This document shows, piece by piece, positions 12,737 to 57,538 of a stretch of DNA of 64,000 nt (position 1 is its first letter; each line of letters starts with the position of its first letter). The stretch comes from an uncultured Poribacteria bacterium (GTDB taxonomy: Bacteria; Poribacteria; WGA-4E; WGA-3G), in assembly GCA_951812525.1 (NCBI GenBank), contig OX638316.1, positions 964,653-1,028,652 of the forward strand, read 5' to 3'. Position numbers and translations under genes: made by a program. The notes under the pieces were generated by a model. That model made no database searches and was not told the DNA's origin. It was given only the letters and a program-made list of their open reading frames with translations.

Positions 12737-12810
12737 GGGCTTATAGCTCAGACGGTTAGAGCGCGCGCCTGATAAGCGCGAGGTCCCTGGTTCGATTCCA
12801 GGTAAGCCCA
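12737..12810 (+). tRNA. tRNA-Ile(GAT)
   Basis: GGGCTTATAGCTCAG...CTGATAA...GGTTCGATTCC...AAGCCCA cloverleaf; CCA not encoded. Confidence 0.95.
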
Positions 12811-13103
12811 CTTTTTCATATCCCCTTTTTTACACTACTTTCAATTCTCCGAGTGTCTCCTCTCACATCCGACGTTAACAGGCGAAATTTGCATTTTTTC
12901 TCACCACAAATCCTTCCCGCTCCGAAGAAATGTTACTCAACAGCGACAGTGAGGCATAGAAAGAAATTTCACTGAAGAAAAAGCAGTAAATCAGGTTCTA
13001 ATAAAGTAGGACCATGGACTAAGATAGCTTTTCCCTAAGGGTTGTTTCGGGTTTCGTATTTGCCGAAAACGCGCAAGTTGGGAACTCGTACAAGGAAAAT
13101 ACC

Positions 13104-32484: not shown

Positions 32485-34257
32485 ATGAAATTGCTACAGC
32501 TTCTGTTGATTATTTCACTTGGCATCGGTGCTTACGCCCTTGTGGCAGCACCTCCAGACTTATCTACCACTCCCCCATGGCAACCCACAGGAAAATACAC
32601 ACATCCCCCTATCCAAGAGAGTTCCGGTATCGTTACAAGTCAGCAATTTGAAGGTGTCTATTGGACACTCAACGACTCTGGCAACCCTGCAGCACTTTAC
32701 GCTACAAAACTAAATGGTGAATTAATTCAAGAGATCGCTGTGAGCGGTTCGGGCAACTTCGACTGGGAAGCACTCGGTATCGACACACAGAACCAACTCT
32801 GGATCGGTGAAATCGGCAATAATAGCACGCTACGGCAAGACTTGAAAGTAGTCGTCGTTGCAGAACCGGACCCGTTCACTGAAACAGAGGTGGAAGTCAT
32901 CGCAAGTTACCCGTATCGCTATCCAAACGAGAATGTGGATGCTGAAGGGCTCTTTATCGCCGGAGGTATCCCCTACATCGTCTCTAAGGAGCGGGAACGT
33001 GCTGTACTCTATCGATTTCCAACACTACAACCTGATACAAAACAGGTTTTAGAACGTGTTGGTGAATTCGCTGATGCAAAATTCGTGACAGGTGCAGGAT
33101 TGTCTGAAGACGGGACGAGGCTTGCTGTCTGTACCTACGACGCACTCTGGGTGTATCAGGGCACAGCGGATAATTTCGCACAGATGATTCAGAGCACACC
33201 GTGGCACCTATCACATAGTTTTTATGGAGAGGCGGTTTGCTTTGACGGTTATGATCTTGTCCTAACGAATGAAGGGCGTGACCTCTACAGTTTACCACAA
33301 TTTTGGTACGAGAAAGAGTGGGAGCTGCCTCCAAAAAACACACAATCGGCAGTCTCTCTCCTACCTAAAGCAACAACACATAACGCATCAGCGCAAGTAG
33401 AAAGCTACCGCACAACGGGCATAACTATAGATGGAAGCTATGTAGCACTGATACCGGAAACTGCTGAAGAGACCGGATCCTTAACTGTTCCAATTGAAGC
33501 TCCTTACAGAGATGTTTATGAAATTAGTGCTATTTTAGCGCGTGGACCGGAATACGCCCAAGTTGAACTATCAGCGAACGGCACTGTAGTCGGCACATCC
33601 TACAACAGTTATTTTCCTGAACCGATAGCCGGGACGTTGGTTTCATTTGGTACCGCTCCCCTGAATGCTGGGACAAACCAAATTATGCTTAGGGTCGTCG
33701 GGAAAGCAGCCGAAGGGAAAAGTTACAAAATCGGTATCAATTCCTATCAGGTGCTGCATGCCTCTCCATTTGTTGAACGTTACATGGTACTCGGTCCATT
33801 TCCCAACACAGATGTTGAGACGATTGATAAGCTGCTGCACTCTGAAAGCCCGTTAAACTCAGAGGCAACTTACACAGGTACGCATGGCAAAACAGTCCAT
33901 TGGCAGGAAGGGACTGCAGGCGCAGGCGGTTACCTCGATTTACGTACAAACCTTAGTTTTGAGCCACAGGTTGTTGGATACACGCTAGTGTACGTCCACG
34001 CCTCGAAAATAACCGATTCTGTGATGCTGATTGGGAGCGATGACGAAATCACTGTCTGGCTAAACGGAACCGAAATTCACCGGAACAGTATTGACGCTGG
34101 AGCGTCGGTAGATAGAGATGCGGTTCCGTGCCAATTGAAAGCAGGATGGAACACGGTTCTGTGCCAAAAAGTGGATCTCGGTTGGTCGTGGGGGCTTTAT
34201 CTACGGTTTACGGATGCGGATGGGGATCTTCGGTATAGTCTACAGCCAGAAGAATAA
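32485..34257 (+). CDS. secreted protein: beta-propeller-like N-domain + jelly-roll/PA14-like C-domains
   Basis: Signal peptide; ESSG, LNDSGN, DWEA, DAEG, GEAV repeats; C-terminal GSDD...VWLNG...LKAGWN. Confidence 0.6.
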   Translation: MKLLQLLLIISLGIGAYALVAAPPDLSTTPPWQPTGKYTHPPIQESSGIVTSQQFEGVYWTLNDSGNPAALYATKLNGELIQEIAVSGSGNFDWEALGIDTQNQLWIGEIGNNSTLRQDLKVVVVAEPDPFTETEVEVIASYPYRYPNENVDAEGLFIAGGIPYIVSKERERAVLYRFPTLQPDTKQVLERVGEFADAKFVTGAGLSEDGTRLAVCTYDALWVYQGTADNFAQMIQSTPWHLSHSFYGEAVCFDGYDLVLTNEGRDLYSLPQFWYEKEWELPPKNTQSAVSLLPKATTHNASAQVESYRTTGITIDGSYVALIPETAEETGSLTVPIEAPYRDVYEISAILARGPEYAQVELSANGTVVGTSYNSYFPEPIAGTLVSFGTAPLNAGTNQIMLRVVGKAAEGKSYKIGINSYQVLHASPFVERYMVLGPFPNTDVETIDKLLHSESPLNSEATYTGTHGKTVHWQEGTAGAGGYLDLRTNLSFEPQVVGYTLVYVHASKITDSVMLIGSDDEITVWLNGTEIHRNSIDAGASVDRDAVPCQLKAGWNTVLCQKVDLGWSWGLYLRFTDADGDLRYSLQPEE

Positions 34258-34470: not shown

Positions 34471-37400
34471 TTAGACCTGCTCAACACTCAAAGTTGCCGG
34501 TTCACCATTCAGTTTTTGTGCAACGGTGAATGCGTTTCCACTGGGAGATTGGGCAACAGTTGTCGTCAGTGTTTCTCGCAGGATGTAGTCTCGATGTGCT
34601 TCAAACGCTTCCTCGACAAGCGATGATGGTGTTTCCAGACTGAGTTTAATCCGATCTGCGACGTTAAAATCGGCATCCTTCCGCATATTTTGGATTTTGT
34701 TGACGAGTTCGCGCGCCAATCCCTCAAGCGTTAATTCGTGTGTCAGTTCCGTTGACAATGCAACGAACTTCTTAGCGTCCATCTCCACAAAGAAACCTTC
34801 CCGATTCTGCGTTTGCACGTCGATGTCTGACTGCTCAAGGGTGTACGTCTCTCCCGACGCTTCAACCTGTAAACTGCCTGTTGCTTCCAATTCCGCCTTC
34901 ATCTGCACTGCATCTCCCGTAGCAAGTGCCTTTGCGATGGCTTGTACGCCTTTGCCATACTTCGGTCCCAGCACCCTGAAGTTGGGCTTAAGCGTCACCT
35001 GTGCAAATGCGTCGAGATCCTCCGTAAAGACAACAGCCTTGACGTTGAGTTCATCGTGTACGAATTCCGCCAAACGGTTAACGGTCTGTTTTTCTGGATC
35101 AGAGATGCCGCCGAGGGTGAATTCAGCAAGCGGTTGACGCGTTTTAATGCCCGACCGGTTCCGTGCAGCATGTCCCATACTGATTACGTCGCGCGTGAAA
35201 GCCATATCGGTTTCGAGTTGTGCATCCTTCAACGAGACATCTGCAACTGGGTATTCCGCAAGATGCACACTGGCAGGTGCGTCCGGATCAAGCGAGCATA
35301 CCAAGTTTCGGTAGAGTTCGTCCGCCAAAAACGGCATGAACGGTGCGGCGAGTTTCGCAACGGTTACAAGCACCTCATAAAGCGTAGCATACGCAGCTTG
35401 CTTGTCAAGTCCGGCTTCAGCACCCCAGAATCGGTCGCGGGATCGACGGACGTACCAGTTGCTGAGATCGTCCACAAATTCCTCAATGGCGCGCGGAGCA
35501 TTCGTGAGATGGTAATTTTCCATGTCGCCGCGCACGCTGTCGATGAGGGTATGAAGCCGTGATAAGATCCATCTGTCCACGATAGCGCGCTCCGCAACCG
35601 GCGGTACCTCCTTCAATACATCAACCTGCTCTAAGTTGGCATACATAACGAAGAAACCATAAACGTTGTAAAGGGTTCCCATGAACTTCTTCAACGCTTC
35701 ATCAATGCCCTCCGGTTTGAAAGTGCGTGGTGTCCACGGCGTGGTTGCGGTGAACATATACCAACGCATCGCATCCGCGCCTTGCTTGTTGAGGATTGTC
35801 CACGGATCCACCGTGTTCCCCCGGCTCTTACTCATCTTTTGACCGTCGGGTCCCATAATTAACTCAAGGCAGAGGCAGTTTTTGTAAGCCGGTTTATCGT
35901 AGAGGAGTGTACCCGTCGCCAAGAGACTATAGAACCAACCGCGTGTCTGATCAATGGCTTCGGAGATGAAATCGGCAGGATACGCCTGTTCCAGCATCTC
36001 CTTGTTTTCAAACGGGTAATGCCACTGTGCGGTGTGCGCGCAGCCGGAGTCAAACCAGCAGTCAATTACATCTTGCACGCGACGCATCGGACCACTGCAC
36101 TTGTCGCAGTTGAGGACAACATCGTCCACGTATGGACGGTGGAGCTCAATATCATCTGGAACGTCAGTACCAAGCTCCTGCAGTTCGGCGATGCTACCCA
36201 CACAGTGCTGATGTCCACAGTCGTCACAGATCCAGACCGGCAGTGGTGTTCCCCAATAACGCTCACGACTCAATCCCCAGTCGATGTTGTTTTCCAACCA
36301 ATTGCCGAACCTTCCATCCTTGATATGCTCTGGATACCAGTTAATCTCCTGGTTGTGCTGGTGCATCTGATCGCGGATAGCGGTCGTGCGGATAAACCAC
36401 GATTCGCGCGCATAGTAGAGCAGCGGATTATCACACCGCCAACAAAACGGATATTGGTGAGTATATTCGGCAGCTTTGAACAACAGACCGCGCCCATCTA
36501 AGTTCTCGATGATTTGTGGATCTGCGTCTTTAACGTATTCACCTGCCCACGGTTCTTTAACCTCTGGTACAAACCTACCATCATCACCGACCACTTGCAC
36601 GAGCGGCATGTTGTGTTTCTGTCCGATCTCGTAGTCATCTTGCCCAAAAGCAGGAGCGATGTGGACTAAGCCGCTACCCTCTGTCGTCGTCACGAAATCC
36701 GCTGTAACGACGTAATGCGCTTTTTCTGGATGCTGTCCGCTATCAAACAACGGTTCGTATTCCCAATTGCGGAGGTCGCTGCCCTTATAGCTTTCGACAA
36801 CCTGCGGGGATTCATCACCAAACAGACTGGACATACACTCCTTGGCGAGAATGAGATGCCGTCCGTTATCTTCAACAGCGACATAGTCGTAATCCTCACC
36901 GACAGCCACGGCAACGTTAGACGGCAACGTCCACGGTGTCGTTGTCCAGACGAGTAGATAGGTATTCTCTCTGTCCTTCAACTGGAACCGAACAAAGATA
37001 GACGGATCGGCGACCTCTTGGTAACCCAAGGCGACTTCATGGCTCGCCAAGGTTGTACCGCATCGATAGCAATACGGTTGCACCTTATGTCCCTGATACA
37101 GCAGTTCCTTATCCCACGCCTGCCGAAGGACCCACCAGACGCTCTCAATGTAATCATTGGACAACGTGATATAGGCATCGTCGAGGTTGACCCAAAATCC
37201 GATGCGCTCGGTCATTTCTCGCCAATCCTGCTCGTATTGGAACACGTTCTCCTTACACTTCTCGATAAAGTTTTGAACGCCGTAAGCCTCCAACTCTGCC
37301 TTGTTTGTAATATTCAGCTGCTTTTCGACCTGATACTCAACGGGGAGTCCGTGCGTATCCCAACCTGCTTTTCTGTGAACATAATGCCCTGTCATCGTTT

Positions 37401-37614
37401 TGTAGCGACAAACAGCATCCTTCATGACGCGAGCGAGGACGTGATGGACACCCGGCGGTGCATTCGCAAACGGGGGTCCCTCTAAAAAGACAAATGGCAC
37501 TGCGTCCTTGCGCAGCTCCATGCTCTTCTGAAAAATGTCATTTTCACGCCAGAACTCTAAGGTCTGTTTTTCCTTGTCAGCAAACGTGAATTGCGGTGAT
37601 ACCTCTTCAAACAT
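34471..37614 (-). CDS. ileS: isoleucine--tRNA ligase, type 2
   Basis: EGPPFAN, GVHH signature, GWDTHGLP, WTTTPWTLP, SRERYWGTP, DQTRGWF, KMSKS; type-2 C-terminus; ATG at 37614 with GAGGG RBS. Confidence 0.96.
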   Translation of the reverse strand: MFEEVSPQFTFADKEKQTLEFWRENDIFQKSMELRKDAVPFVFLEGPPFANAPPGVHHVLARVMKDAVCRYKTMTGHYVHRKAGWDTHGLPVEYQVEKQLNITNKAELEAYGVQNFIEKCKENVFQYEQDWREMTERIGFWVNLDDAYITLSNDYIESVWWVLRQAWDKELLYQGHKVQPYCYRCGTTLASHEVALGYQEVADPSIFVRFQLKDRENTYLLVWTTTPWTLPSNVAVAVGEDYDYVAVEDNGRHLILAKECMSSLFGDESPQVVESYKGSDLRNWEYEPLFDSGQHPEKAHYVVTADFVTTTEGSGLVHIAPAFGQDDYEIGQKHNMPLVQVVGDDGRFVPEVKEPWAGEYVKDADPQIIENLDGRGLLFKAAEYTHQYPFCWRCDNPLLYYARESWFIRTTAIRDQMHQHNQEINWYPEHIKDGRFGNWLENNIDWGLSRERYWGTPLPVWICDDCGHQHCVGSIAELQELGTDVPDDIELHRPYVDDVVLNCDKCSGPMRRVQDVIDCWFDSGCAHTAQWHYPFENKEMLEQAYPADFISEAIDQTRGWFYSLLATGTLLYDKPAYKNCLCLELIMGPDGQKMSKSRGNTVDPWTILNKQGADAMRWYMFTATTPWTPRTFKPEGIDEALKKFMGTLYNVYGFFVMYANLEQVDVLKEVPPVAERAIVDRWILSRLHTLIDSVRGDMENYHLTNAPRAIEEFVDDLSNWYVRRSRDRFWGAEAGLDKQAAYATLYEVLVTVAKLAAPFMPFLADELYRNLVCSLDPDAPASVHLAEYPVADVSLKDAQLETDMAFTRDVISMGHAARNRSGIKTRQPLAEFTLGGISDPEKQTVNRLAEFVHDELNVKAVVFTEDLDAFAQVTLKPNFRVLGPKYGKGVQAIAKALATGDAVQMKAELEATGSLQVEASGETYTLEQSDIDVQTQNREGFFVEMDAKKFVALSTELTHELTLEGLARELVNKIQNMRKDADFNVADRIKLSLETPSSLVEEAFEAHRDYILRETLTTTVAQSPSGNAFTVAQKLNGEPATLSVEQV

Positions 37615-37673
37615 GTGAATTCCCTCATGTAGCCTTAAGTCCAGATTCAAGGCTTAGTCTGCTACCTACTGTT

Positions 37674-37720
37674 AAAAAAGAAAACGCCCCACCGAAATCG
37701 ATCGTTTCAGTGATGGGCGT
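37674..37720 (-). terminator. attenuator terminator upstream of ileS
   Basis: ACGCCCATCACTGAAA-CGATCGA-TTTCGGTGGGGCGT-TTTCTTTTTT on the minus strand. Confidence 0.8.
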
Positions 37721-37749
37721 CGGAATAAAAGCTGCGTATCTACCTGCGA

Positions 37750-37896
37750 TTAGCCCACCACAGCACGACGGATAGCAATAATAATGGATATGGCGCGCGA
37801 ACCCACGACAGCACGAAGGCTATCTTGATGCAGGGTATTGTAGCGCACAGGTTCTCCATATTGCGACGTCAATGTGGTAAGCGATTTTTTGTCCAT
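37750..37896 (-). CDS. putative ileS leader (attenuator) peptide
   Basis: Hand translation MDKKSLTTLTSQYGEPVRYNTLHQDSLRAVVGSRAISIIIAIRRAVVG*; 5 Ile in 7 codons near the stop; alternative GTG start at 37848 with GGAG RBS. Confidence 0.75.
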   Translation of the reverse strand: MDKKSLTTLTSQYGEPVRYNTLHQDSLRAVVGSRAISIIIAIRRAVVG

Positions 37897-37975
37897 GTCT
37901 CGTTTAAACAATGCGTGATACTATTATAAATCTATATTGGTTAAAACCTATTTTAGAAACCGACTTGTTAATATT

Positions 37976-38005
37976 ATGATAACATATCCTATGAGGAAAT
38001 GTCAA
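37976..38005 (-). promoter_or_regulatory. promoter of the ileS leader
   Basis: TTGACA-18bp-TATCAT with extended TG on the minus strand. Confidence 0.55.
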
Positions 38006-38131
38006 ATCTTTTTTACTCCGCATTAAGATCATTCAGTACTGGAAAAGGCACCCGTCAAACAACTACAAACTGTTAGTTTGTGGCATTTGCGAAATCTCCA
38101 CACCCCACTCCCCACTGATAATAGGTATCGC

Positions 38132-40366
38132 TTAAAAACGTCGCACCATTTCCATACTCCAAAACCGGGGTTCATTGACATAACCGGTTAGATTGTTGAA
38201 ATCAATACCGCCGGTGGGCGATGTATCGTTGAGGATGTTGCGTCCGACAAGTGCTACCTCTATGTCGGCATAGGGCAGTAAGCACGCAAGACGGACACCG
38301 CCTTGCAAGAGCCAATCATCGGCGTATTCCACAGATTCGTAGAGAAAGAATCTCACGCGGCTGCGATATGCCCAATCCGTAGATGCGATGAGGCGTGTCC
38401 CTCCGGGAAGGGCGAGAACGTAGTGGAGCGTTATATCTGCGATCCAACCGGGTGCTTGTGGCAGGCTATTACCGTTGATAGAAAAAGTGCCCGGAGCAGA
38501 AGCGCGCGGATCCAGCATCGTACACGGAGCACCGCAGCCCTGTATCGCTAAATTCGGATCGTCAATGCGGGTCTGGTTGTAACTAAGTCCTGCTGAGATC
38601 TCCAGCGACGTAATTGGTGCGAAACTCAACTCTGCCTCAATGCCTCGTCCGATGGTGCCTTCAGCGTTCACCAACCGATTGAAATTAGTTTCTCCACCCA
38701 CCGCAGTGAGCTGCTGGTCTTGCATAAAGTATTGGAACGCGCTCATATTTAGGTGCAACCGCTGTTGCCACAGGCGTAACTTCGTGCCACCTTCAACAGA
38801 GAGAATGGTCTCCGTATCCGCCATCGTGACAGCATCGCCAAACAGCAAGCGTCCCTGAATGCTGGGTGCACGGAACCCTCGCGCGGCGCGTAAATAGGTC
38901 TGGACGGTAGGTGTTACGCTATAACGGAGACTCAGATCTCCACTCCACACCGTATCCTGAGGATTCCGATGGATAGGACCGAGTTTGCCTGCTCCGGTCA
39001 CAGCAGGTGCCTCGTCACGCCACGCTGTATAGTCCTTCGCATCGTGAGACAGTCGTAAGCCGGCACCCAATTCGAGATCCTCAAGGCACTGGAAGGTCAT
39101 CGCCGCAAATGCCGCTTGTGCCGTAGCCGTCTGCTCTTGGCGCGTCTTGCCATCCGCGGTACCCCCTGCCAGCGTATTGTAGTTATAATCCTCCATCTCT
39201 ACAAACTCATGAAAATAGTACATCCCAAACTGATAGACGAGACGGCGCGCTTCTGGACTCATTAAACGGATTTCTTGGCTGAACTGGCGCAGCGCAGGAA
39301 TGCCGGATGCGGTTTCGGAAGGAAAGGGAATTTCGCCGGGACCGCTCGGTGGGCTGAACACAGCACCGTACCCGCCGTCAATGTCTCCGCGTGAAAAGTT
39401 GGTGAGTTGCTCCAGCCCTGTGAGCGAAACCAGTTGGAAGTTCCCAATATCGTAGCGGACTTCACCGACCAAACCTTGCGTCCTCAGGGTTTGCTCATTG
39501 CGTCCGTCGTGCGCAATGCTGTCACGAGCAAAGTCTTGAATCAGAGCCGCTTCACCCTTTGACAAGATGTTAGCGCGGAACAGGCGTGCGGTGCCGTCGA
39601 GATCACGCGCTTGGAACTTGATCCACGCTTCCAGTTCCGGTATAGGTGTCCACAATAGCTGCAAACGTCCAGCCAAGTCCCGATGCCCGCCAAGGACATT
39701 CTCTTCACCGGTATGTTCGTTATCCACCCAATCATCTCGCCACTGCGCAAGCAGTGAAAGCCTCGCGGAAAGCACAGACGAAACAAGCGGACCCGATACC
39801 GCGCCCTCAAAATTACTAGTGTTGAACTGCCCGTAACTGAGTCGTCCGTATCCTTCCAATGTTTGTGTAGGACGTGCCGATTCAAACTTTACAATGCCAG
39901 CAGGTGTATTACGTCCAAACAGCGTGCCTTGTGGTCCGCGCAGCACCTCAATCCGATCAAGGTCAAAGGCAGGATACCCTTTCAACATTGCGTTTTCAAG
40001 TACAACCCCATCGTAGAGCACCGAAACCGGCTGCGAAGCGTTGAGGTCAAAGTCTGTATTGCCCAAGCCGCGAATAAAAAAGCGTGGAAAGATACGCCCA
40101 AACGAGGATTCCATCTGTAAACTGGGGGTACGATTCGACAAAAAACGTACATCCATACCTGACGAACGTAAGGCATCGAATTTCTCACCTTGGACTGTCG
40201 ATACCGAGAGTGGCACTTCAAAAGAGCGTTGTTCGCGCTTGCGGGCGGTAACCACGATGTCTTCCATCACAACAACATCTTCGGTTTCCTCATCGGCAAC
40301 GACTGTCAGAGATATAGATAACAGGACCAAGAAAATCAAAGCATAAAACTGTTTATTAAAGTTCAT
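38132..40366 (-). CDS. TonB-dependent receptor
   Basis: Signal peptide, DIVVTARKRE TonB box region, plug IEVLRGPQGTLFGRNTPAG, C-terminal Phe. Confidence 0.92.
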   Translation of the reverse strand: MNFNKQFYALIFLVLLSISLTVVADEETEDVVVMEDIVVTARKREQRSFEVPLSVSTVQGEKFDALRSSGMDVRFLSNRTPSLQMESSFGRIFPRFFIRGLGNTDFDLNASQPVSVLYDGVVLENAMLKGYPAFDLDRIEVLRGPQGTLFGRNTPAGIVKFESARPTQTLEGYGRLSYGQFNTSNFEGAVSGPLVSSVLSARLSLLAQWRDDWVDNEHTGEENVLGGHRDLAGRLQLLWTPIPELEAWIKFQARDLDGTARLFRANILSKGEAALIQDFARDSIAHDGRNEQTLRTQGLVGEVRYDIGNFQLVSLTGLEQLTNFSRGDIDGGYGAVFSPPSGPGEIPFPSETASGIPALRQFSQEIRLMSPEARRLVYQFGMYYFHEFVEMEDYNYNTLAGGTADGKTRQEQTATAQAAFAAMTFQCLEDLELGAGLRLSHDAKDYTAWRDEAPAVTGAGKLGPIHRNPQDTVWSGDLSLRYSVTPTVQTYLRAARGFRAPSIQGRLLFGDAVTMADTETILSVEGGTKLRLWQQRLHLNMSAFQYFMQDQQLTAVGGETNFNRLVNAEGTIGRGIEAELSFAPITSLEISAGLSYNQTRIDDPNLAIQGCGAPCTMLDPRASAPGTFSINGNSLPQAPGWIADITLHYVLALPGGTRLIASTDWAYRSRVRFFLYESVEYADDWLLQGGVRLACLLPYADIEVALVGRNILNDTSPTGGIDFNNLTGYVNEPRFWSMEMVRRF

Positions 40367-56755: not shown

Positions 56756-57538
56756 TTAGTGCGCTTTGATAGCACCCCATGTGACAGCGAGTTTCCCCGC
56801 GGGTTCAACATCAAAGGCGATCTGGTAATTTTCTTTGACCTCTTTGTCATCTAAGGCGCGATGATAAACAGCAACATCGTCAATTTCACCCTCAAAATAG
56901 AAGGGCTTGATAAAGGCGTTGCGGTCGTGTCCGACTGCGACAACGACGTGACTGCGCGTATCCCGACTGTTTATGACCCCGTCTGCCTCGGCATCAAGTT
57001 CACCGTTGATGTAGAGGAATTTTTTCTCGTCATCGGCGTTGGTGACAAATGTGATGTGTGTCCATTCTCCGGCTGTGACAGGGGTCGTTGTTTTGAAAAC
57101 ACCGAACCCGTCGCCAGCTCTCTGGGTTTGTACCGTTCCGTCTGCCAAGAGTTCCAACCACGAGTCGCCACCACCCTGGGGGTCATCGTCCCAGATGATG
57201 ACTTTTGGACCGCCGGGGAGGGCTGCGACTTTAATCCACATTGCGTAGGTAAGATCTTGTCCTGTAGTGGCGGGACCCATGACGATATAATCCTCTTTGC
57301 CGTTGAAACTGAGTGCCTCTCCGACAATGCCTTCTACACTCTGCGGTGCACCTTTGATTTCCCCATCGTTTTCGCCGAGGGCATCCTTGGCGACCTTTGC
57401 ATCAGTATCGCTCTTATCAAAGGTCCAGTACCCTCCCAATCCATCTTCAATGGATTGCGCGTACGCTATTTGTGTGTAAGCCGACGCGAAACTAATGAGT
57501 ACCGCGCAGACAAGTATAAGGAATAGCCTGAATTTCAT
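56756..57538 (-). CDS. secreted LamG-like jelly-roll protein with C-terminal TWG tail
   Basis: GYWTFD, GEALSFNG, WTHITF, LYINGE, FEGEIDDVAVYHRAL; tail FDVEPAGKLAVTWGAIK. Confidence 0.85.
   Translation of the reverse strand: MKFRLFLILVCAVLISFASAYTQIAYAQSIEDGLGGYWTFDKSDTDAKVAKDALGENDGEIKGAPQSVEGIVGEALSFNGKEDYIVMGPATTGQDLTYAMWIKVAALPGGPKVIIWDDDPQGGGDSWLELLADGTVQTQRAGDGFGVFKTTTPVTAGEWTHITFVTNADDEKKFLYINGELDAEADGVINSRDTRSHVVVAVGHDRNAFIKPFYFEGEIDDVAVYHRALDDKEVKENYQIAFDVEPAGKLAVTWGAIKAH

Follow-up and report, generated by a model that had tools for sequence, protein, structure and literature searches.

What might tie the expression of ileS, the gene for isoleucyl-tRNA synthetase (IleRS), to the supply of charged tRNA-Ile in bacteria of an uncultured candidate phylum? 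The question is raised by the region upstream of ileS in a sponge-associated Poribacteria genome. The stretch of DNA analysed here (the window) comprises 64,000 nt of contig OX638316.1 (positions 964,653 to 1,028,652; assembly GCA_951812525.1), and the region of interest was read on its minus strand from 38200 to 37500; coordinates are those of the window unless a contig is named. An original prediction, made before any comparison with relatives, described this region as a leader-peptide attenuator that senses isoleucine (Ile) and controls ileS. Comparative analysis supports that view, and each comparative check proposed with the prediction turned out favourably: the open frame and the run of Ile codons are both kept among related genomes, and no Rfam T-box is present. 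We put the probability that the element is a ribosome-mediated, Ile-sensing transcription attenuator of ileS at roughly 85%.

The positions given in the original prediction for the promoter, the open reading frame (ORF), the Ile codons, the terminator and the ileS start codon were all found to be correct. In the direction of transcription, a promoter-like site (38005-37976) comes first, consisting of TTGACA, an 18-nt spacer and TATCAT (11 of 12 matches), with a TG before the -10 hexamer. In a search of genomes of the same genus, the first ~45 bases of the query, a part that contains this site, matched upstream of the leader in several of them, and leaders of sister genera carry a TATCAT or TATTAT box about 45-50 nt before the ATG. 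Transcription probably starts at this promoter, near 37976. The leader ORF follows, with 48 codons between ATG 37896 and the TAA stop at 37752-37750, and specifies the peptide MDKKSLTTLTSQYGEPVRYNTLHQDSLRAVVGSRAISIIIAIRRAVVG. An alternative in-frame start, GTG (37848-37846), is preceded at a distance of 5 nt by GGAG (37857-37854) and would give a leader of 32 codons. The only Ile codons of the ORF are five within seven codons (ATA TCC ATT ATT ATT GCT ATC, 37791-37771), and these are the presumed regulatory codons.

Three short segments around the Ile codons, together with the 3' arm of the terminator (region 4), make up the putative switch. Region 2 (GTGGTGGGC, 37761-37753) consists of the last three sense codons of the leader and has two possible partners for pairing, region 1 and region 3. 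Region 1 (GCTTACCACA, 37882-37873) is the 5' strand of a long hairpin in folds of the window and would act as an anti-antiterminator. Region 3 (GCCCATCAC, 37718-37710) is complementary to region 2, with one G:U pair, and it serves both the terminator, as its 5' arm, and the antiterminator, as its 3' arm. The intrinsic terminator has a stem of 37719-37705 with 37697-37685, of which the scan tool gives the inner part, a 7-nt loop and a T tract at 37684-37674, and its fold energy is -19.0 kcal/mol. The T tract is 60 nt from ileS (34471-37626, 1047 codons), which has a ribosome binding site (RBS), GAGGGA, at 37626-37621 and an ATG at 37614. The ileS product scores 963 bits against TIGR00392 (cut-off 621), and its start, ATGTTTGAAGAG, is common to the orthologues. 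These components of a classical attenuator are present: a short ORF, a cluster of cognate codons, an intrinsic terminator, and an antiterminator that could be masked by a ribosome at the stop codon.

How such an element would work can be set out as follows. Translation of the leader would begin at ATG 37896 or at GTG 37848 in the same frame. With ample Ile-tRNA, the ribosome would reach the TAA and cover region 2, which lies directly before it, so that region 3 would pair with region 4, the terminator would form and the polymerase would halt at the T tract. When Ile-tRNA is scarce, the ribosome would stall on ATT ATT ATT with its front edge short of region 2, and would hold the lower part of the long hairpin open. 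The free region 2 would then pair with region 3 once this is transcribed, no terminator would form, and ileS would be transcribed. The sensing codons sit in the 3' strand of the hairpin, which is ~130 nt long and closed by the 1:2 helix, and if there were no translation at all the hairpin would be expected to zip up while it is being made and to sequester region 2, making termination the default. The stalling, the time course of folding and the response to isoleucine are steps that we infer from this arrangement.

The anatomy of the element, its conservation, the constraint on its frame and its pairing potential are demonstrated by sequence analysis. Using BLASTn, the leader DNA (37919-37671) was recovered from 23 of the 24 other genomes of the same genus, at 74-87% identity, and from none of 16 genomes of other genera. 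Homologous leaders do exist in other genera, so the latter result reflects a search that was too insensitive. IleS was located by its N-terminal 150 residues in 60 of the 61 genomes of the order and the sequence upstream was then read; a homologous leader was found before ileS in all 20 of the further family loci examined. A strict motif, made up of the ORF end, stop, spacer and region 3, was also searched for across the genomes of 185,579 species (one genome per species). It gave 67 matches, every one of them in a record titled Candidatus or uncultured Poribacteria, which bears out the guess of this phylum in the original prediction. After pooling and removal of duplicates there were 75 distinct leader regions, 74 of them complete, and the counts that follow refer to the alignment of these 74 (A1) unless another sample is named.

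Translation of the leader frame is indicated by how it has changed among relatives. Between the aligned start and the leader stop, no leader carries an in-frame stop in frame 0, while the other two frames are interrupted in 49 and 61 of the 74 leaders. Leader length is divisible by three in 73, and the whole-codon lengths take 11 values between 36 and 50. ATG occupies the aligned start column in 69, and the stop codon is TAA in 71, TGA in two and TAG in one. Of the distinct gap blocks, 15 of the 20 within the ORF have a length that is a multiple of three, and the blocks there include indels of 18, 15, 9, 6 and 3 nt; between the stop and the terminator this holds for 3 of 35, and upstream of the start for 6 of 31. 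In a shuffled-substitution test, 28 representatives of less than 85% identity were chosen and the substitutions of each against its nearest neighbour were shuffled. The frame is open in all 28, with a random expectation of 0.15-0.75 for each, and the joint probability of 1e-8 makes the case look stronger than it is, because relatives are not independent. A second test, which compared stop-creating variants in the context of the consensus (5 observed, 4.8 expected), was set aside as invalid since it ignores changes that co-occur within a codon.

The start codon itself is less clear. The GTG at 37848 that the original prediction had put forward is present, is in frame with ATG 37896, and its GGAG is a better-placed Shine-Dalgarno (SD) sequence, so it may be the real start; however, only 48 of the 74 leaders have an NTG codon at this column (GTG 34, CTG 8, ATG 4 and TTG 2). 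A short ORF with a usable start is available to the leader, its weak point being the frequency of SD cores that is given below.

Conservation and the frame tests together contradict the alternative that a chance ORF happens to lie beside an ordinary terminator, for example that of the TonB-dependent receptor gene upstream. What can be said for it is that promoter-like and terminator-like sites are no more numerous in a 1.1-kb scan than in shuffled sequences (2 vs. 2.0 and 3 vs. 1.2, respectively), so that such counts from a single sequence prove nothing. The end of the receptor gene, however, is at 38132, some 410 nt upstream of the hairpin and separated from it by the promoter-like site, and in relatives the element always stands before ileS. 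This is the least probable of all the explanations considered. As to the neighbourhood, the receptor gene (38132-40366, minus strand; Plug and beta-barrel domains) is the upstream neighbour of the leader, and downstream of ileS there is a 590-residue ORF on the other strand (32485-34257, plus) for which no Pfam match was found.

Specificity for isoleucine was judged from the codon run. Conservation of the Ile cluster had been proposed as a check on the original prediction, and it is borne out: at least four Ile codons occur within a window of seven codons in 72 of the 74 distinct leaders, the remaining two have three, and the length of the run varies by whole codons. Isoleucine makes up 6.45% of the residues in the long frames of the same genome. 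Among 759 terminator-like hairpins in this 5.06-Mb genome, that of the ileS leader is the only one with a short upstream frame containing at least five Ile in seven codons. A genome-wide look for other attenuators, with runs of His, Trp, Thr, Leu or other codons before terminators, found nothing convincing. One terminator-like hairpin within the window, at ~56986-57020 on the plus strand (contig 1021638-1021672), has a short upstream frame, ...PTATTT, and a downstream ORF of 156 codons; the frame is probably there by chance.

A profile built from the 74 leaders detects exactly one other copy in the genome (contig 4921362-4921587, E 7.8e-15). This paralogous copy lies outside the window and precedes a DUF5916/CBM9-like gene (contig 4921330-4921644; locus L118:130-445). 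It has its own promoter-like site, an ORF that begins MFYLSLT..., region 2 and the same terminator, and it is without the Ile run (MFYLSLTKLMHENYLSTATGFGAMLLAIPMYRQEWAYN). About 20 genomes of the same genus have kept it, with the end of the ORF always near region 2. As this copy keeps the scaffold and not the run, the Ile run goes with ileS and not with the scaffold. The same copy lends some support to a different explanation, in which the translated leader does govern termination but reports the general speed of translation or the supply of ribosomes instead of isoleucine, or in which the Ile-rich peptide is itself functional: ORF, region 2 and terminator have all been retained there without Ile codons, and in some lineages the ileS leader has only two or three of them. 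A signal of general translation does not account for a run that is tied to the ileS copy and that recurs in unrelated leaders before two deeply divergent forms of ileS, and a functional peptide fits poorly with residues outside the run that are not conserved between families and codon positions that vary equally. We regard both versions of this explanation, taken together, as unlikely.

The antiterminator pairing set out in the original prediction, between the end of the leader and the 5' arm of the terminator, is upheld by the alignment. Regions 2 and 3 are paired in 665 of 666 cells, all 28 of the changed yet paired cells being one-sided wobble changes, and when the partners are slid by 1-3 columns only 33-66% of cells are paired. 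The 1:2 helix (GCTTACCACA with TGTGGTGGGC) is 95.9% paired, with one-sided changes only and with one of its pairs unpaired in 15 leaders. The terminator is 86.9% paired, a value lowered by a difference in register of the outer stem between two variants; its inner eight pairs are kept. Folded individually, the terminators range from -14.6 to -25.7 kcal/mol. The mean energies of the three helices are -14.9 (1:2), -17.0 (2:3) and -19.6 kcal/mol (3:4, the terminator), and competing helices of nearly equal energy are also typical of classical attenuators. Across families, the C in GCCCACCATC always has a G opposite it in regions 2 and 4, and an A in the opposite strands occurs only with U. This pattern fits a three-way constraint on the core, in which regions 2, 3 and 4 would have to remain mutually compatible, and such a constraint would explain why the core changes slowly.

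Equilibrium folding cannot test a kinetic switch, and truncated transcripts were folded in place of full-length ones. The folds of the window follow the proposed mechanism, since the 1:2 helix forms when no ribosome is present, a ribosome on the Ile run leads to a 2:3 helix with 9 of 9 pairs made, and no antiterminator forms with a ribosome at the stop. The spacing is also compatible, as region 2 begins 18 nt after the second ATT, taken as the A-site codon of the stalled ribosome, and abuts the stop codon.

A further feature of the leader is the duplication CGTGCTGT(C/G)GTGGG, which encodes RAVVG twice (37815-37802 and 37767-37754) and had been suggested to offer an alternative pairing. The first copy is part of an 18-nt (6-codon) insertion at 37815-37798 that is found only in the genus of the window and is absent from the sister genera (28 leaders are without the block), and the copy itself is variable (GTCGTGGGT, GTCACGGGT, GTCTCGGGT and others). 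A conserved role of the duplication as a pairing partner was rejected on these grounds.

To the leaders of the window's family can be added those of more distant Poribacteria. A set of 43 outlying loci was formed by 34 further ileS upstream regions from across the phylum and nine from the order search, and these were examined for Ile-dense frames, defined as at least four Ile in ten codons and an end within 100 nt upstream of a terminator-like hairpin. A first regular expression for terminators missed several true loci, and the recount by a fold-based scan gives an Ile-dense frame in 26 of the 43 loci, which come from 9 of 17 genus groups. Their peptides show no relation to that of the window (examples are MLTITVIISSVLISIIILIDGGQKA, ...SIGIISIIIIASRGGGLMETK, ...SIGIAILIIIIR, ...INIIIIIRLLYSVVGKRVSS and ...DDIIIIRLLQTMVGAEISS), and in the leaders of the ...SIGIISIIIIASRGGGLMETK type GGAG is conserved and the start is GTG or ATG. 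What they have in common is an RNA core comprising region 2, (G/A)(A)UGGUGGGC, region 3, GCCCAYCAUC, and region 4, G(A/G)UG(A/G)UGGGC, followed by a U tract. The core is not read in one frame throughout: region 2 is GTG GTG GGC in the window's family and GAT GGT GGG CTG in two other families. The leader stop likewise varies: it follows region 2 immediately or at a distance of 10 or 16 nt, or precedes it by about 3 nt. To judge from these positions, a ribosome terminating at any of the stops would cover region 2, and the Ile codons lie ~10-30 nt upstream, an arrangement not predicted for an RNA-only element. The IleRS of two other families is only 34% identical to that of the window over 646 residues, and so the leader accompanies two deeply divergent forms of ileS; perhaps it persisted while the gene behind it was exchanged, or perhaps it moved. 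The loci concerned (L050 and L160-L182, two other families of the order) have the attenuator core before the divergent IleRS gene, with one ileS match per genome.

The core (regions 2, 3 and 4) shows stronger conservation over the phylum than the peptides do, and this would also be compatible with an RNA switch that works independently of the ribosome and binds tRNA-Ile, as a very divergent relative of the T-box, or else IleRS or a small molecule, the open frame being a by-product. Such a switch would suit the absence of a codon-position signal, the SD sequences that are often missing, and the resemblance of GCCCAYCA in region 3 to the end of tRNA-Ile(GAU) (...TAAGCCC-A plus CCA). It leaves unexplained, however, the frame-preserving indels (15 of 20 inside the ORF vs. 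9 of 66 outside it), the avoidance of stops, and the dense Ile codons in unrelated, differently framed peptides over the same core. The statement in the original prediction that no T-box is present was also confirmed: a search of 37400-38300 on both strands against all families of Rfam release 15, at E values up to 10, returned neither a T-box nor a leader family, which excludes a recognisable T-box, and 12 related loci searched at the gathering score gave no T-box and no other family. We consider a switch of this kind very unlikely.

The resemblance to tRNA allows a hybrid to be imagined, in which the conserved core has a role beyond its internal pairing, the element sensing the free 3' end of uncharged tRNA-Ile as well as a stalled ribosome, or serving as an acceptor-arm decoy for IleRS. 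Region 3, often with AA before GCCCAYCA, is similar to the tRNA-Ile(GAU) 3' end, ...AAGCCC-A-CCA, and regions 2 and 4 (UGGUGGGC) are the complement. The gene for this tRNA is at 977389-977463 of the contig (window ~12737-12811), and the likeness covers the 3' strand of the acceptor stem, the discriminator and the CCA. Most lineages have a U in region 3 where CCA requires a C, a point that counts equally against the RNA-only switch above, and the likeness is probably a matter of chance in a GC-rich terminator stem. Taken jointly, the two forms of the hybrid are rated lower again than the ribosome-independent switch. If the idea were true, the element would link leader-peptide attenuators with T-boxes, and it would be explained why the core has outlasted exchange of both the peptide and the form of IleRS.

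A number of observations weigh against an Ile-sensing attenuator and have to be set beside the evidence in its favour. Some of these concern translation. Variability is flat over the three codon positions (56/57/60 and 39/55/54 distinct variants), and equal variability means that the sequence of the peptide is not under selection; this fits a leader peptide but provides no coding signal. The aligned start column is not ATG in five of the 74 leaders, and a canonical SD core precedes the aligned ATG in 21 of them and in none of the 37 in the window's class, so that the start of the leader is uncertain. In one Poribacteria chromosome record (L079), a 1-nt insertion places the ATG out of frame with the Ile run, which points either to an assembly error or to a leader that has lost the ability to sense Ile. 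Among the outlying loci, 17 of 43 are without an Ile-dense frame, some of these having only two or three Ile codons. Leader and terminator are both missing from two genomes of one sister genus and one genome of another family (L157, L158 and L180), from which it follows that the leader is dispensable. These three loci are natural variants without the attenuator. In each of them (L157 and L158 from a sister genus within the window's family, L180 from the other family), the promoter is followed nearly directly by the ileS RBS.

Other difficulties concern the RNA. Changed cells of the 1:2 and 2:3 helices are one-sided within the family, and two-sided covariation of the 2:3 helix is absent from the 74 leaders. 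The long hairpin is 85.2% paired, a value equalled or exceeded by 215 of 500 column shuffles; it is conserved and not proven by covariation. The z-score of the whole-leader fold (-1.16) is not significant. When full-length leaders were folded to minimum energy with the ribosome masked, the terminator came out as the most stable state every time, and the switch would therefore have to be kinetic. Folding of the two conformers, also proposed at the outset, succeeds for the window, as described above, but is mixed over the 74 leaders: in the stalled state the 2:3 helix forms in 44 and region 1 is still paired with region 2 in 23, and without a ribosome the 1:2 helix forms in 41 and the 2:3 helix in 27. 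Region 1 is about 110 nt before region 2 and is not under the stalled ribosome, unlike in classical cases.

Transcript evidence is slight. RNA-library contigs from two studies (records 3 and 22) join the end of the leader, the terminator and ileS, one of them covering 37524-37761 with one differing letter and the other 37577-37785 with 14. They indicate weakly that leader and ileS occur joined in RNA libraries, where DNA may be present too, and they are uninformative on 3' ends, strand and level, a further point on the negative side. No RNA contig covers 37924-38300, and this gap is not taken as evidence for the transcript start.

The closest parallels to the element are found in well-studied attenuators. 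The pheM-pheST system of E. coli is controlled by a leader-peptide attenuator, and in the enterobacterial leaders ilvL (of ilvGMEDA) and ivbL (of ilvBN), Ile codons act as sensors in a terminator/antiterminator switch. The Poribacteria leader resembles pheM-pheST in having an ORF rich in cognate codons and a terminator with a competing antiterminator, all before a synthetase gene. It differs in amino acid and gene, has no sequence relation to pheM-pheST, is 32-48 codons long, and carries its regulatory codons in the 3' strand of a ~130-nt hairpin and not in region 1. It has the use of Ile codons as sensors in a terminator/antiterminator switch in common with ilvL and ivbL, but those leaders belong to biosynthesis operons and have mixed Ile, Val and Leu codons, whereas the Poribacteria leader would control a synthetase and its run is of Ile only.

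Control of synthetase genes by attenuation is not new in itself. In the passages seen of one comparative study, attenuation of pheST is described as established in gamma-proteobacteria, attenuators of trpS and leuS are predicted in Streptomyces, and ileS is placed under T-box control in Firmicutes, with a T-box acting at the level of translation in Actinobacteria (PMC1262725). The Streptomyces predictions, as described there, resemble the present case as comparative evidence for leader-peptide attenuation before synthetase genes outside the proteobacteria, and differ in gene and phylum. The T-boxes before ileS in Firmicutes and Actinobacteria share the gene and the signal (charging of tRNA-Ile), and the Firmicutes form also the terminator/antiterminator logic, but a T-box binds uncharged tRNA directly and without translation, and no T-box match occurs in the Poribacteria window. 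In Caulobacter crescentus, ribosome profiling led to the naming of an 'ileS leader CDS', CCNA_03934, and the same source mentions an ilvBN leader with tandem Ile and Val codons (PMC4117421). The former is, like the Poribacteria leader, a small ORF before ileS in a Gram-negative bacterium, and it is translated; it was compared by description only, and the passages of that paper that were consulted give no mechanism, Ile-codon content or terminator for it. In the literature searched, no paper was found to describe a leader-peptide attenuator of ileS based on Ile codons, or any attenuation in Poribacteria, and an earlier prediction elsewhere is possible. The Poribacteria ileS leader is best read as a new and well-conserved case of the textbook stalled-ribosome switch, and not a new mechanism.

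Several consequences follow for annotation and for evolution. Gene callers will miss or misname the leader ORF, and when metatranscriptome reads end at the terminator, this should not be interpreted as a sign of a small RNA. Rfam has no model of the element, which could become a family there, with the 74 family sequences and the outlying forms as a ready seed alignment. In evolutionary terms, an RNA core that appears to be under a three-way constraint has been kept across the phylum while the peptide, the reading frame of the core and the position of the stop have all changed, and the form of IleRS that it would control differs as well (34% identity). One copy has been duplicated, has lost its Ile run, and now stands before the DUF5916 gene, which is of an outer-membrane type. 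For an uncultured candidate phylum, the leader represents a well-supported regulatory element, and Poribacteria appear to gauge the charging of tRNA-Ile by way of the translating ribosome, a task that is carried out by the T-box in Gram-positive bacteria.

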